The position numbers were made by a program, and so were the translations under genes. Positions 6,579 to 29,708 of a stretch of 32,000 nucleotides of DNA are shown one piece after another. The stretch's first letter is position 1. Each line of letters starts with the position of its first letter. The notes under the pieces were generated by a model, which did no database searches, was not told the origin of the DNA, and saw only the letters and a program-made list of their open reading frames with translations. Where the stretch lies: assembly GCF_000025925.1 (NCBI RefSeq), contig NC_014033.1:2880001-2912000 (forward strand), written 5' to 3'. Source of the DNA: Xylanibacter ruminicola 23 (lineage in GTDB: Bacteria; Bacteroidota; Bacteroidia; Bacteroidales; Bacteroidaceae).

Positions 6579-6593
6579 GCCTTTTTTGCGGTG

Positions 6594-6601
6594 CAAAGGT
6601 A
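6594..6601 (-). promoter_or_regulatory. Bacteroidota -7 box TAccTTTG upstream of tRNA-Leu
   Basis: The minus strand reads TACCTTTGCACC about 15 nt upstream of the tRNA 5' end. Confidence 0.45.
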
Positions 6602-9653: not shown

Positions 9654-9676
9654 AACGTTATTCTGTATTTTGGGTG

Positions 9677-9684
9677 CAAAGATA
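9677..9684 (-). promoter_or_regulatory. -7 box TAtcTTTG upstream of pyrE
   Basis: The minus strand reads CTATCTTTGCACCC, 23 nt before the ATG. Confidence 0.45.
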
Positions 9685-11770: not shown

Positions 11771-11791
11771 AGTGAATAGTGAATAGTGAAT
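11771..11791. repeat. Perfect heptamer tandem repeat (AGTGAAT)x3 in the prmC/ribD divergent spacer
   Basis: It reads agtgaat agtgaat agtgaat, followed by the degenerate unit agtaaaa. Confidence 0.8.
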
Positions 11792-11803
11792 AGTAAAAAT
11801 AAT

Positions 11804-12727
11804 ATGATAGACGACAAAAAATTCATGCAACGCTGCATTCAGCTGGCAAAAAACGGACAGCTGAACGCTAAGCCCAACCCCATGGTGGGCGCAGTTATTG
11901 TACATAACGGCCGTATTATTGGCGAGGGTTACCACGTGCGCTGTGGTCTGGCTCATGCCGAGGTAAACGCTTTTGCCTCTGTACGAGCAGAAGACGAGGC
12001 CTTGTTGCCCGAATCAACCATCTACGTATCGCTTGAGCCCTGCTCACATTATGGTAAGACGCCCCCTTGCGCCGACTTGATTATCGAGAAAGGTGTGCGC
12101 CGTGTGGTTGTAGGATGTATCGATGAATTCGCCGAAGTTCAAGGTCGAGGCATCCAGAAACTACGCGATGCAGGCATCGAAGTAGAGGTAGGCGTACTCG
12201 AGGATGAATGCAAGGCATTGAACCGTCGTTTTTTCACATTCCATCGCGAAAAACGTCCTTATATCATCTTGAAATGGGCACAGACCGCCAATGGTTTCAT
12301 CGACGATCATCACCAGCCCGTACAAATCTCAAGCGACTTTACCAAGATGCTTTCGCACAAACTGCGTGCTGAGGAGGATGCTATTCTAGTGGGGCGCGTT
12401 ACCGATGAGCGCGAACATCCGCAGCTGAATGTACGCGAATGGTACGGACCTGATCCCAAACGTATGGTGATAGACCGTGCTCACCCGCTGAACCTCGAGA
12501 GCTTGCATGCTCAGAATATCCAGTCGATTATTGTCGAAGGCGGTACCGAAACGTTACAATCCTTTATCGTGCAAGGTCTTTGGGACGAGCTACGTGTTGA
12601 AACCAACACATCACTGACCGTTAGCGATGGTACGCGTGCACCACAGCTGCCTGCTAGCGCCCAAGTGGCAAGCAGTCATATCTACGGTAAAAATGTGATT
12701 GTGGTTTATCAGCGAAAATACAGATAG
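11804..12727 (+). CDS. ribD: Bifunctional riboflavin biosynthesis deaminase/reductase
   Basis: The start is moved from the track GTG (11786) to ATG 11804 (MIDDKKFMQRCIQLA). Deaminase zinc motifs HAEVNA and PCSHYGKTPPC, with a reductase C-terminal domain. Confidence 0.9.
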   Translation: MIDDKKFMQRCIQLAKNGQLNAKPNPMVGAVIVHNGRIIGEGYHVRCGLAHAEVNAFASVRAEDEALLPESTIYVSLEPCSHYGKTPPCADLIIEKGVRRVVVGCIDEFAEVQGRGIQKLRDAGIEVEVGVLEDECKALNRRFFTFHREKRPYIILKWAQTANGFIDDHHQPVQISSDFTKMLSHKLRAEEDAILVGRVTDEREHPQLNVREWYGPDPKRMVIDRAHPLNLESLHAQNIQSIIVEGGTETLQSFIVQGLWDELRVETNTSLTVSDGTRAPQLPASAQVASSHIYGKNVIVVYQRKYR

Positions 12728-13582
12728 TTATTTTCTACCAAAATCGGCAGGTACCTCACCCCACTTCTGTGTTTCCCATTTTATGATGGGATTACGGTAC
12801 TGGTGGGTACGCAACCAGTTCTCGGCTCTTGCAATAATTTGGAAGAGCTGTTCGGTTTGTGGGGTGCGTTCAAGTGTAGTTTTACATTTGCCTTTCGACA
12901 CCCATAGAATGGCATTATAACTATCCGAATATATGGTTTTATCGTGCCATCCCTTTTGCCAACAAAGTGCCAAGGCATGCACAATAGCCAAGAATTCACC
13001 GATATTATTTGTGCCTTTTACAGGACCAAAATGAAAAACCCTTGCGCCTGTAGTCAGATCAATACCCTGATACTCCATCGGTCCAGGGTTTCCGCTACAA
13101 GCAGCATCTACTGCAAAAGCGTCTGCCCTTACAGCCTCCCCCAACCCCCTCCAAGTAGAGGGGGCTTTAGGTGAATTCTGTACCTTTTTCTTATCCGATG
13201 GTATAATTTCCATAAGTGCTTTCTTAATGTTCCTAAGTACCTCTTGCGTATTTGCGACTACCTCCTCGTTCGTAAAACGAATAACAGTAAAACCGCTTTT
13301 CTGCAAATCCTCTGTCCTACTCTTATCCTTTACTATCTGCTTGTCTTCAAGGTGATACTGACCGTCTATTTCTATTACTAACTTCTTATGCAAGCAAACA
13401 AAATCTACAATATAATCCTTGATGATATGCTGCCTTCTAAACTTATGCCCATCAATACTTCTTGATTTTAGGATCTCCCACACGATACTTTCAGCCTCTG
13501 TAGGATGACTCATGTTGTAATCTGCATAAGCCCTTAGCAAGTCGTAATTGGCATTATCAGCCGTTTCATAAATATAGGTCAT
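12728..13582 (-). CDS. Chimeric ORF: N-terminal DUF559/Vsr-like endonuclease domain fused to a C-terminal RNase H (type 1) core
   Basis: aa 1 to about 125 read HPTEAESIVWEILK...FRRQHIIKDYIVDFVCLHKKLVIEIDGQYH...TVIRFTNEEV (DUF559). aa from about 150 read AVDAACSGNPGPMEYQG...TNNIGEFLAIVHAL...IYSDSYNAILWV (RNase H). The linker KAPSTWRGLGEAV is encoded by the left inverted repeat. Confidence 0.8.
   Translation of the reverse strand: MTYIYETADNANYDLLRAYADYNMSHPTEAESIVWEILKSRSIDGHKFRRQHIIKDYIVDFVCLHKKLVIEIDGQYHLEDKQIVKDKSRTEDLQKSGFTVIRFTNEEVVANTQEVLRNIKKALMEIIPSDKKKVQNSPKAPSTWRGLGEAVRADAFAVDAACSGNPGPMEYQGIDLTTGARVFHFGPVKGTNNIGEFLAIVHALALCWQKGWHDKTIYSDSYNAILWVSKGKCKTTLERTPQTEQLFQIIARAENWLRTHQYRNPIIKWETQKWGEVPADFGRK
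13133..13167. repeat. Left inverted repeat (G/C-rich, self-complementary)
   Basis: agcctcccccaaccccctccaagtagagggggctt. It has an internal stem ccccctc/gaggggg. Confidence 0.85.
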
Positions 13583-13596
13583 CTCACAATATGATT

Positions 13597-13631
13597 AAGC
13601 CCCCTCCCTTTGGAGGGGGATGGGGGAGGCT
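13597..13631. repeat. Right inverted repeat (G/C-rich hairpin), 2 nt downstream of the argS stop
   Basis: The reverse complement agcctcccccatccccctccaaagggagggggctt matches the left repeat at 31/35 positions. It has an internal 8-bp stem ccccctcc/ggaggggg with a 4-nt loop. Confidence 0.85.
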
Positions 13632-13633
13632 TT

Positions 13634-15418
13634 TTACATACGCTCAGGAACTTCGATGCCCAGCAGGCTCATACCGTTCTTGATAATCTTGGCCACATTC
13701 TTAGCCAGCATCAAGCGTACGGCCTTCTTCTGCTCATCGGGTTCGTTCAGAATGCTGTAATCGTGATAGAACTGATTGAACACCTTGGTGAGCTCGTAGC
13801 AGTAGTTAGCGATACCACTTGGTGAGTAATCCTTACCAGCCTGCTCTACAGCAGCACCAAACTCGTTCATCTTCTGAACCAGCTCTACCTCCTTCTCAGC
13901 CAGATCAACCTGAGCATTAGCAGGCTTCAAGCCCTCAGCCTCGGCCTTACGCAGGATCGAACGGATACGAGCGTAGGTGTACTGGATGAAAGGACCAGTA
14001 TTTCCGTTGAAATCGATACTTTCCTCGGGGTTGAACAGCATGTTCTTACGAGCATCAACCTTCAGGATAAAGTACTTCAGGGCACCCATACCAACCACAC
14101 GAGCAATCTCACGGCGCTCCTCTTCGGTCATATCGTCGAACTTACCCAGCTCCATCGAGGTCTTGTAGGCATCCTCTACCATCAGTGCCATCAGGTCGTC
14201 GGCATCAACAACCGTTCCCTCACGACTCTTCATCTTACCGTTTGGCAGTTCTACCATACCATATGAGAAGTGTGTAAGCTCCTTACCCCACTTGAATCCT
14301 AAGCGATCCAACAGGATAGAGAGTACCTGGAAGTGGTAGTTCTGCTCGTTACCTACCACATATATCATCTTATCGATAGGATAATCCTTGAAACGCATCT
14401 CGGCTGTACCGATATCCTGAGTCATATAAACCGAAGTACCATCGCTACGCAGCAGCAGCTTCTGGTCGAGACCCTCGTTAGTCAGGTCGGCCCAAACCGA
14501 GTTGTCCTCGTGGCGCTCAAACAGGCCCTTAGCCAAGCCCTCTTCAACCTTAGCCTTACCCTTCAGGTAGGTCTGACTCTCGTAATAGATCTTATCGAAC
14601 GATACGCCCATCTTCTTGTAGGTCTCGTCGAAACCGGCATATACCCAGTTGTTCATCTTCTCCCACAGAGCGCGTACCTCGGGATCGTTGTTCTCCCACT
14701 TAACCAGCATCTCGTGAGCCTCCTTAATCAGTGGAGCCTCCTGCTTAGCCTTCTCCTCGTCCATACCCTGGGCTACGAGTTCCTTCACCTCCTCGCGGTA
14801 GTGCTTATCGAAAGCTACGTAGTAGTCACCAATCAGGTGGTCGCCCTTCTTGCCCGATGTCTCAGGAGTCTCGCCGTTGCCGTACTTCAGCCAAGCCAGC
14901 ATCGACTTACAGATATGAATACCGCGGTCGTTCACGATATTGGTCTTCACCACCTTGTTACCATTGGCCTCCATAATCTGTGCCAAACTCCAACCCAGCA
15001 GGTTGTTACGTACATGGCCCAGGTGCAAAGGCTTGTTGGTGTTAGGCGAAGAGTATTCGATCATAACCAGAGGCGACTCGTCGGTAACCTGCTTCATGCC
15101 GAAACGCTCATCCTTATCGATAGCATCGAGCAACTGCAACCAGGCACCATCGCCAACGCTCAGGTTCAAGAAACCTTTTACCACATTAAACTTCTCAACA
15201 GCTGCACAGTTAGCAGTCAGGTATTCACCAATCTCCTGTGCTGTCTGCTCCGGACTCTTCTTGGCAGCCTTCACAAAGGGGAATACCACCAGAGTCAAGT
15301 TACCCTCAAACTCACTTCTTGTCTTCTGCAACTGCAGCATCTTCTCTGTGGCATCCATGCCATAGAGGGCCTTTACTGCCTCGCCTGCAGCCTTGCTGAT
15401 TAATGCTTCAATATTCAT
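13634..15418 (-). CDS. argS: Arginine--tRNA ligase
   Basis: 594-aa ORF with the class I HIGH-type motif SPNTNKPLHLGHVRN and a KMSK-like MKSREG. The anticodon-binding C-terminus ends in ...GIEVPERM. Confidence 0.95.
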   Translation of the reverse strand: MNIEALISKAAGEAVKALYGMDATEKMLQLQKTRSEFEGNLTLVVFPFVKAAKKSPEQTAQEIGEYLTANCAAVEKFNVVKGFLNLSVGDGAWLQLLDAIDKDERFGMKQVTDESPLVMIEYSSPNTNKPLHLGHVRNNLLGWSLAQIMEANGNKVVKTNIVNDRGIHICKSMLAWLKYGNGETPETSGKKGDHLIGDYYVAFDKHYREEVKELVAQGMDEEKAKQEAPLIKEAHEMLVKWENNDPEVRALWEKMNNWVYAGFDETYKKMGVSFDKIYYESQTYLKGKAKVEEGLAKGLFERHEDNSVWADLTNEGLDQKLLLRSDGTSVYMTQDIGTAEMRFKDYPIDKMIYVVGNEQNYHFQVLSILLDRLGFKWGKELTHFSYGMVELPNGKMKSREGTVVDADDLMALMVEDAYKTSMELGKFDDMTEEERREIARVVGMGALKYFILKVDARKNMLFNPEESIDFNGNTGPFIQYTYARIRSILRKAEAEGLKPANAQVDLAEKEVELVQKMNEFGAAVEQAGKDYSPSGIANYCYELTKVFNQFYHDYSILNEPDEQKKAVRLMLAKNVAKIIKNGMSLLGIEVPERM

Positions 15419-15437
15419 ATCTTTCGATTTTTGGGTG

Positions 15438-15445
15438 CAAAATTA
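15438..15445 (-). promoter_or_regulatory. -7 box TAatTTTG upstream of argS
   Basis: The minus strand reads TAATTTTGCACCC, 19 nt before the ATG. Confidence 0.45.
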
Positions 15446-24268: not shown

Positions 24269-24276
24269 TATCTTTG
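24269..24276 (+). promoter_or_regulatory. -7 box TAtcTTTG upstream of the DMT transporter
   Basis: It reads TATCTTTGCACCC, 20 nt before ATG 24297. Confidence 0.45.
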
Positions 24277-24296
24277 CACCCATAAACTTACTTAAT

Positions 24297-29666: not shown

Positions 29667-29674
29667 TATCTTTG
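29667..29674 (+). promoter_or_regulatory. -7 box TAtcTTTG upstream of the second ATPase, overlapped by the inverted repeat GATAA-N4-TTATC (29657-29670)
   Basis: It reads TATCTTTGCAGCC, 34 nt before ATG 29709. Confidence 0.45.
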
Positions 29675-29708
29675 CAGCCGAAAAGGTAATTATCAAGGAT
29701 AAAAGAGT

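Follow-up and report, generated by a model that had tools for sequence, protein, structure and literature searches.

The DNA considered here is a window of 32,000 nt from the genome of Xylanibacter ruminicola 23 (assembly GCF_000025925.1, contig NC_014033.1, positions 2,880,001-2,912,000 of the forward strand; all coordinates below are window positions 1-32,000 unless another locus is named), in which a short cassette (13133-13633) lies between argS, the gene for arginyl-tRNA synthetase (ArgS), and the coding sequence of an RNase H (rnh). We have found that this cassette is a discrete unit, running from one terminal inverted repeat to the other, whose presence varies between near-identical strains and which is found again in many conserved genes unrelated to one another. 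The unit encodes a nuclease of the DUF559 family, and it is probably one copy of a family of selfish, homing-like nuclease elements that occur in Bacteroidota and their relatives and are tolerated by read-through. An element of this family would measure ~0.43-0.7 kb and consist of an open reading frame (ORF) for a DUF559 endonuclease of ~125 aa between two terminal inverted repeats of 26-47 nt, each with a C-run on its outer side, for example (A)GCCYCCCCC, then a spacer of 2-6 nt and a hairpin of C5-8/G5-8. Such elements would lie within conserved housekeeping genes or at their edges and be tolerated since they are read through, the C/G-rich repeats being translated to Pro/Gly-rich linkers and the nuclease becoming an extra domain of the host protein.

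The cassette and the fused nuclease gene

The two repeats of the window (13133-13167 and 13597-13631) are 35 nt long per arm, complementary at 31 of the 35 positions (89%) and separated by 429 nt, and inside each arm lies a C/G hairpin of 7-9 bp (-7.4 to -9.8 kcal/mol as DNA); the recomputed figures agree with those of an earlier note on this DNA, which had been made from its letters. The pair is the top-scoring inverted repeat of the whole window, within whose 32 kb no further copy of the repeat was found, and the core repeat pattern had 0 matches in 100 shuffles; a single arm hairpin is unexceptional against shuffles of its own C/G-rich sequence (z of -1 to -2). The interior of the cassette is low in GC (36-39% in 150-nt windows, against ~45-56% in the flanks), so that the compositional contrast reported earlier stands, the exact value of 33-35% then given being slightly too low. 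The outer ends of the repeats span 499 bp, and the cassette begins 2 nt past the stop codon of argS at 13634. Read in the direction of the gene, the upstream repeat (13597-13631) is untranslated and has the form AGCCTCCCCCATCCCCCTCCAAAGGGAGGGGGCTT, in which a C-run on the outer side and a C/G hairpin of 8 bp are separated by 2 nt; next come a 14-nt spacer (13583-13596, minus strand), which contains no Bacteroidota-type promoter motif, and the ATG (13580-13582) of a single ORF of 284 aa on the minus strand (12728-13582). Translation and Pfam searches divide this ORF into a DUF559, or Vsr-like PD-(D/E)xK, nuclease domain (aa 26-123; 13214-13507, minus strand), a repeat-encoded linker, and an RNase H1 catalytic core (aa 151-284 and the stop codon; 12728-13132, minus strand). 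The downstream repeat (13133-13167) lies inside the linker and is translated as KAPSTWRGLGEA (aa 139-150), in frame into the RNase H core, just as the earlier note had read it.

The nuclease domain matches DUF559 (PF04480) with 110.7 bits against a cut-off of 20.6 (E 4e-32), which bears out the earlier assignment of the interior to a DUF559/Vsr-like endonuclease. It also matches the PDB entry 3HRL in sequence (E 1e-21) and in structure (Foldseek template modelling (TM) score 0.87, normalised to the target) and, in sequence, the catalytic domain of I-Bth0305I, a characterised homing endonuclease (3R3P, E 1.2e-4). Twenty rnh-fused orthologs have D60, E71, D73, H77, D86 and R89 without exception, and the equivalent columns are also invariant in 12 in-frame inserts from other genes; these residues would belong to the Vsr active site. 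In the other half of the protein, the Pfam families RNase_H and RVT_3 matched at aa 156-264 (PF00075, 26.4 bits against a cut-off of 25.8), and the core is like the catalytic domain of Bacillus halodurans RNase H1 (TM score 0.95, 46-47% identity); of the DEDD residues, D159 is the same in all 20 aligned sequences, and E196, D220 and D280 occur in at least 90% of them. Besides RNase H, the Pfam scan of the 284-aa protein found only DUF559 and no NUMOD or helix-turn-helix (HTH) DNA-binding region, and the AlphaFold model (20 orthologs) predicts two confident domains joined by a disordered linker (aa 127-150, confidence score pLDDT <50).

The earlier note had proposed profile searches of the two halves against DUF559, RNase_H and the hybrid-binding domain Cauli_VI (PF01693); DUF559 and RNase_H were found, and Cauli_VI had no match in either the fused or the unfused Prevotella forms. 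The RNase H core corresponds to positions 77-211 of the NCBIfam model NF046109, which has ~76 extra N-terminal positions. The statement that this RNase H subfamily normally has a hybrid-binding domain is right for the B. halodurans type, whereas the N-terminus in Prevotella is either a 17-residue peptide (unfused) or the DUF559 cassette (fused). The further idea that the cassette had displaced the domain was rejected for the Prevotella lineage, where the unfused orthologs, of ~150 aa and without the domain, have only the short N-peptide MQNPPDYRHDTVLPLPMEV.

Filled, empty and miniature alleles at the argS-rnh site

X. ruminicola D31d (L011) has no cassette; its unfused RNase H is 100% identical in protein sequence to the core encoded by the window, and its ArgS 99.5% identical. 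In a blastn comparison, DNA homology to D31d runs at 96.3% up to window position 13634, the argS stop, and resumes at 94.3% from 13132, and the endpoints of the indel are therefore the outer ends of the inverted repeats. The cassette in between (13133-13633, minus strand; 501 bp, repeat to repeat plus 2 nt) has as its counterpart in D31d 55 unrelated bp, which hold the native ATG and the N-peptide; in the window the cassette stands in place of this ATG and the 17-residue peptide, and supplies a new ATG. The earlier note had taken the segment for a small selfish unit giving RNase H its start codon and N-terminus, and this view is supported: D31d lacks exactly the repeat-to-repeat segment, and such units recur elsewhere.

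In a scan of 80 Prevotella loci at one genome per species, rnh directly follows argS in nearly all of them, and the majority encode a short, unfused RNase H of ~150 aa with the conserved 17-residue N-peptide MQNPPDYRHDTVLPLPMEV and no DUF559; in most of the 80, the N-peptide NPPDYRHDTVLPLPMEV heads the short RNase H directly after argS. To judge from this distribution, the short unfused form is the ancestral state, and the empty site that the earlier note had hoped to see in relatives is present in D31d as well as in most of these loci. The fused loci are scattered, with ArgS 72-82% identical to that of the window; the closest relatives of the window (96-99%) are unfused, and X. brevis carries both states (P0052 fused, L030 unfused). 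It also emerged, by way of correction, that the fusion is not unique to this genome: full-length DUF559-RNase H fusions make up more than 100 protein clusters in Prevotella/Xylanibacter at 59-94% identity, always with the frame kept, and the identical 284-aa protein occurs in 47 blocks of the assembly collection, the 23 contigs read including the NCBI genome GCA_019973335.1. The linker of the fusions is variable in length and sequence, and nearly always includes a hairpin-type peptide (APSTWRGLGEA, SPLPLEGVRGR, SPSPFGEGRGGA and the like), of which there are sometimes two. No DUF559 ORFs beyond those linked to rnh were found in 686 kb of Prevotella loci, so that these genomes are not densely populated by the cassette.

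With the native ATG gone, the most likely form of the RNase H is a DUF559-linker-RNase H chimera, and a true chimera, rather than a start at Met124, is likewise favoured because the frame is kept across the length-variable linker in all orthologs. No promoter motif of the Bacteroidota type was found ahead of the DUF559-RNase H ORF and argS has one, so that the chimera is probably co-transcribed with argS.

The fused alleles differ at their junctions: behind the repeat, one retains the entire N-peptide (L007), another part of it (L005), and the window none. At L061 (3950-4100), a repeat pair without DUF559 occupies the argS-rnh junction where L007 has the full cassette, and it provides a new ATG (MAKETSAKQQKKPSPLRSEGLGEV) ahead of an intact N-peptide; it looks like a cassette that has decayed in situ. 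The search for the repeat and the cassette in related genomes, which the earlier note had proposed, yielded repeat-DUF559-repeat units as well as DUF559-less pairs at other loci. Such miniature pairs (79-110 bp) were found at L005 (182-260 and 3595-3674), L022 (3538-3640) and L029 (2989-3098). The second pair of L005 and those of L022 and L029 lie in frame inside argS after YARIRSILRK, and so does a solo repeat end in the argS of another species (L026, 3592-3625), which is identical to window 13133-13167 at 34 of 35 positions; all of these add Pro/Gly-rich segments to an essential enzyme. The first pair of L005 lies in a gene other than argS. All three elements of L005, its DUF559 cassette included, share the left-arm loop ATAA, and their right-arm loops are similar (CTAT, or CCAT in the argS copy).

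Three side observations concern rnh loci. Downstream of the unfused rnh of X. brevis ATCC 19188 lies a 340-bp element without DUF559 (L030, 4435-4774), which has C-run and hairpin termini and an interior of repeated AGTCTAGATTG-like motifs; such termini may carry other cargo besides DUF559. At L059 (3875-4848) two reading frames are needed to cover the rnh-linked DUF559, and the RNase H motif is a diverged one (CVDG); either the copy is decaying, or its metagenome-assembled genome (MAG) contains a sequencing error. Five loci labelled Eggerthellaceae, Oscillibacter or Flexilinea (L015, L046, L066, L068 and L078) are argS-rnh loci of the Prevotella type, with ArgS 72-84% identical to that of the window where present (the L078 locus is without argS), and are probably mis-binned MAG contigs.

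Recurrence of the unit in unrelated conserved genes

The DUF559 domain was searched against 1.84 billion representatives at 50% identity, and the best 150 matches (45-60% identity) were examined. About half of these are long proteins with DUF559 in mid-protein, in which the insert is framed by peptides that are Pro-rich and then Gly-rich; the hosts include isoleucyl- and leucyl-tRNA synthetases (IleRS and LeuRS), MetH, adenine deaminase, BirA, glycosyltransferases, an epimerase and SpoIIE-type phosphatases. Furthermore, we sampled 80 DUF559 loci from metagenomes of the Joint Genome Institute (JGI) and scored their repeats against the maximum of a shuffled control. Flanking inverted repeats above this maximum were present at 46 of the 80 loci, and all were of one architecture, namely (A)GCCCCC(C), 2-6 nt and C5-8-loop-G5-8, in inverted orientation around DUF559, with the repeats 10-60 bp outside the domain and an element length of ~400-700 bp. 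With a stricter detector, 355 kb yielded 116 such termini and shuffles yielded none, and the spans of its left-right pairs were bimodal (73-129 bp and 409-799 bp). Of the 46 elements, 28 continue in frame into a host ORF at both ends and 5 at one end, the remaining 13 being free-standing. The host ORFs scanned encode MetH (two sites), a MeaB-methylmalonyl-CoA mutase fusion, methionyl-tRNA synthetase (MetRS), LeuRS, IleRS, valyl-tRNA synthetase (ValRS), an epimerase and an AAA_11/AAA_12 helicase, and the junctions of the inserts are Pro/Gly-rich peptides.

The two arms of a locus are 85-100% matched, and in many cases both show a private variant that is different in other loci of the same host site; at the MetH site, the similarity of arms was 18.5 within a locus against 14.2 between loci, a modest excess. 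A neighbour-joining (NJ) tree, built from about 120 residues and lacking support values, places the DUF559s associated with rnh, with GT2 and with POR in a cluster each. Target-site duplications were absent from 16 well-preserved elements and from the junctions of the window, and Pfam scans of the window protein and of 18 host-plus-insert ORFs found no Hint or splicing domain. No transposase gene was seen beside the elements in the loci with gene tables read.

At the 2-oxoacid:ferredoxin oxidoreductase (POR) locus of Prevotella, stand-alone DUF559 genes (P0277, P0295 and P0362) lie between the genes of the alpha and beta subunits; the alpha gene ends in the left repeat, and the beta gene starts with the right one. 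Some DUF559 proteins of 123-133 aa bear JGI names such as 'guanylate kinase', 'methionine synthase' and 'methylmalonyl-CoA mutase', which could be read as fractured host genes; when three of them were looked up, P0295 and P0362 turned out to lie at the POR alpha/beta junction and P0291 on a 1.3-kb contig without informative neighbours, and we regard these names as unreliable.

In four different SpoIIE/PP2C-type sensor phosphatases (P0133, P0137, P0144 and P0187) the cassette stands at one position, between GDFYW and DCTGHGVPGA, and this shared position suggests the recognition of a conserved target sequence. One protein of 377 aa (P0123) consists of three DUF559 domains in tandem, and a LeuRS of 897 aa (P0160) contains a DUF559 insert as well as two tandem repeat-pair peptides without DUF559 (APPPPEGGNTAANDGTANQLPPSGGGGAYEYTTM). 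As to carriage by phages, viral contigs had only distant DUF559 relatives, with at most 43% identity.

Proposed mobility of the element and alternative explanations

The spread of these elements would be homing-like: the nuclease would cut element-free alleles, repair from the filled allele would copy the entire repeat-to-repeat unit, and decay of the ORF would leave miniature repeat pairs, followed by later loss. We favour such a cycle because a known family of homing endonucleases has this fold, because no target-site duplication is made, because the hosts are conserved genes of the kind preferred by inteins and homing endonuclease genes, and because the DUF559 lineages follow host sites in the NJ tree, at its low resolution. 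In addition, it is favoured by rnh alleles with discordant cassette and core halves: in P0011 and P0012 the identity to the window is 90% for DUF559 but 77-79% for the half with RNase H, and in P0004 it is the other way round. We infer that the unit is selfish and that its DUF559 nuclease drives or maintains it. The repeats plausibly make the insertion survivable, as Pro/Gly linkers are what their C- and G-runs encode, and the model predicts a disordered linker; they could also be a cis site for the nuclease, or an RNA or DNA structure.

Several points weigh against a homing-like origin. The difference between the window and D31d is a replacement (501 bp for 55 bp) rather than a clean insertion, and ordinary homologous recombination, that is, allele exchange, would look identical in this comparison. 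Among the rnh-fused loci, the divergence of DUF559 correlates with that of ArgS (r = 0.79), and much of the history at the rnh site would therefore be vertical residence with loss, not frequent transfer; as the sequences stand, residence at the argS-rnh site appears to be old, with both vertical descent and exchange. The tree of DUF559 lineages is of low resolution, with ~120 residues and no support values, and the spacer subtype of the repeats (TAAAT) is not associated with DUF559 similarity (53.2% within against 53.1% between subtypes). A role of DUF559 in mobility is suggested only by association, and its domain is without the N-terminal NUMOD/HTH DNA-binding region of I-Bth0305I, DUF559 being all that Pfam finds. 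A linker role does not account for the arms remaining matched as inverted copies, nor for the repeats moving with the ORF into new genes, both of which are transposon-like. To our knowledge, classical homing endonuclease genes need no terminal repeats, and the conserved repeats that accompany the ORF into dozens of genes again look transposon-like.

We also put forward, tentatively, a bolder proposal, namely that the elements may be an unrecognised class of autonomous mobile element specialised for coding sequences. The Vsr-like nuclease (~125 aa) would be the sole protein encoded by such an element and would act on or with its own C-run and hairpin termini, so as to move the entire unit without target-site duplication, by a mobility mechanism distinct from those of DDE and HUH enzymes, serine/tyrosine recombinases, introns and inteins, and the termini would double as frame-tolerant Pro/Gly linkers so that essential host proteins survive.

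Alternatively, the fused protein could be a domesticated two-nuclease enzyme, an old Prevotella fusion of benefit to its host that was inherited vertically with repeated loss, the repeats being relics and DUF559 a DNA-nicking or DNA-binding partner standing in for the lost hybrid-binding domain. Such an origin would fit the more than 100 full-length fusion clusters, which go down to 59% identity with the frame always kept, the invariant nuclease residues in both halves, the correlation with ArgS divergence, the grouping of most rnh-linked DUF559s in the NJ tree, and the N-terminal nucleic-acid-binding domain that is normal in the B. halodurans-type family. We nevertheless consider it unlikely, as a short unfused RNase H suffices in most Prevotella, the nearest relatives of the window included, and the fusion has a scattered distribution; as the repeats are no decaying relics, with arms well matched within a locus and differing between loci; and as cassette and core are discordant in some alleles. 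Moreover, this cassette and its termini are found in unrelated enzymes and between the POR subunits as well, so that its association with RNase H does not amount to functional specificity.

Improbable, too, is an explanation from the biology of transposons and MITEs (miniature transposable elements with inverted repeats), according to which the repeats are recognised by a transposase encoded elsewhere (e.g. of the DDE or HUH type), DUF559 is a passenger, and the miniatures are the common non-autonomous form. No target-site duplication was seen in 16 clean cases, no transposase gene adjoins the elements in the loci with gene tables read, and the long form always carries DUF559 and no other cargo, the spans being either ~80-130 or ~410-800 bp; in addition, the DUF559 lineages track host sites, and the elements prefer conserved housekeeping genes, as is usual for homing elements and inteins rather than for DDE transposons. 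What this explanation does account for are the terminal inverted repeats that bound the unit at dozens of sites, the DUF559-less miniature pairs and solo ends, the different interior of the repeat-bounded 340-bp element at L030, and a repeat subtype that does not follow DUF559 similarity.

It is very unlikely that the element acts at the RNA level, where the repeats would pair in the transcript, loop out the DUF559 ORF, and have it removed by cleavage and ligation or skipped by ribosomes. The minimum-free-energy RNA fold does pair the two repeats over ~32 bp (z = -6.8), but a comparable fold is expected from any inverted repeat; the arms co-vary within loci, and there is a precedent in phage translational bypass cassettes, which are linked to homing endonucleases, Vsr-type ones included (bioRxiv 10.1101/2022.08.31.505936). 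On the other hand, the open frames on both sides of 28 of the 33 gene-associated elements, and on one side of the other 5, would be needless if the insert were removed, and at rnh its removal would also take the only start codon. Furthermore, an Rfam scan of 12000-14500 at E <= 1 gave no match, and thus no known intron, riboswitch or repeat RNA. Lastly, a chance coincidence of GC-rich hairpins (e.g. terminators) with an assembly or annotation error, for which the singly unexceptional hairpins might speak, is excluded by the recurrence of the identical protein in 47 assembly blocks, one NCBI genome being among the contigs read, by the 0 matches of the repeat pattern in shuffles, by the 46 of 80 independent loci with this architecture, and by the coincidence of the boundaries with an indel against a related strain.

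The selfish, homing-like element that we favour shares features with Vsr-like homing endonucleases, inteins, Rickettsia palindromic elements (RPEs) and IS200/IS605 elements, but it fails one defining feature of each. Vsr-like (EDxHD) homing endonucleases, such as I-Bth0305I and phage Hef (PMC2677866, PMC3239194), are alike in catalytic fold, with detectable sequence similarity (3R3P), and in being selfish genes that sit in conserved genes, are sporadic among close relatives and make no target-site duplication. However, they lie in group I introns or inteins or are free-standing, and have an N-terminal NUMOD/HTH region, whereas the cassette has no intron, intein or extra DNA-binding domain, is translated within the host protein (although some copies, e.g. 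at POR, are free-standing), and belongs to a family with conserved hairpin terminal repeats and miniature derivatives. Inteins and mini-inteins likewise lie in frame in conserved housekeeping proteins (aminoacyl-tRNA synthetases, B12 enzymes, helicases), exist with and without an endonuclease and form site-specific lineages; in contrast, the cassette showed no Hint domain in the Pfam scans, the insert is presumably kept in the mature protein, and its boundaries are nucleotide-level inverted repeats rather than splice-junction residues. RPEs, said to have been described by Ogata et al. in 2000, and the QMITEs of Coxiella are reportedly MITE-like elements in coding regions. RPEs are alike as short palindromic or inverted-repeat selfish DNA that lies in frame in coding genes and is tolerated as an extra peptide, and the miniature forms found here (73-129 bp) look similar in form. 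RPEs, however, carry no ORF and no candidate mobility enzyme, whereas the long form here has a conserved nuclease with C-run/hairpin termini. IS200/IS605 and REP/RAYT elements also have hairpin ends, small size and no target-site duplication, but their transposases are of the HUH (Y1) type and their two ends do not form an inverted pair, whereas the nuclease of the cassette is of the PD-(D/E)xK type and no HUH protein is present. With MITEs and DDE transposons the cassette has terminal inverted repeats in common, but not the target-site duplication.

No published description of such an element was found in the full-text literature, papers on DUF559 included, where the coverage of subscription journals was partial and an earlier description is possible; the family, widespread as it is, appears to be undescribed. 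If our explanation is true, it would add a third lifestyle for selfish nuclease genes in essential genes of Bacteroidota and their relatives, the abundant Prevotella of gut and rumen included: introns leave at the RNA level and inteins at the protein level, whereas this element would simply be translated, cushioned by hairpin repeats that encode linkers. It would then account for many of the unusual inserts rich in Pro/Gly, and for annotations that read 'DUF559 domain-containing', in tRNA synthetases, MetH and further enzymes, would give DUF559 a concrete biological role, and would provide a natural catalogue of permissive sites for domain insertion in conserved proteins. A nuclease-plus-repeat unit as small as this might use a new mobility or targeting mechanism, and we see a substantial chance that the mechanism is new. 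The argS-rnh site of Prevotella, with filled, empty and miniature alleles in close strains, is a ready test system.

A few observations concern the neighbourhood of the cassette in the window. Upstream of it, argS (13634-15418, minus strand) is an ORF of 594 aa, and Pfam found tRNA-synt_1d and DALR_1 on the identical gene in four relatives (L001-L004). Downstream, ribD (11786-12727, plus strand) and the DUF559-RNase H ORF (12728-13582, minus strand) are convergent, and their stops abut at 12727/12728 with zero intergenic bases, as they also do in L001-L004. The motif TTTGCACCCAAAA, which comprises the TTTG of the Bacteroidota TAnnTTTG -7 promoter box and a conserved leader, occurs at five sites of the window, i.e. 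6585-6597, 9668-9680 and 15429-15441 on the minus strand and 24273-24285 and 29671-29683 on the plus strand. At 4 of the 5 it lies within ~50 nt upstream of a called ORF start, that of argS included; at 9668-9680 it falls inside a called ORF with a TTG start, the true start of which is probably further downstream.

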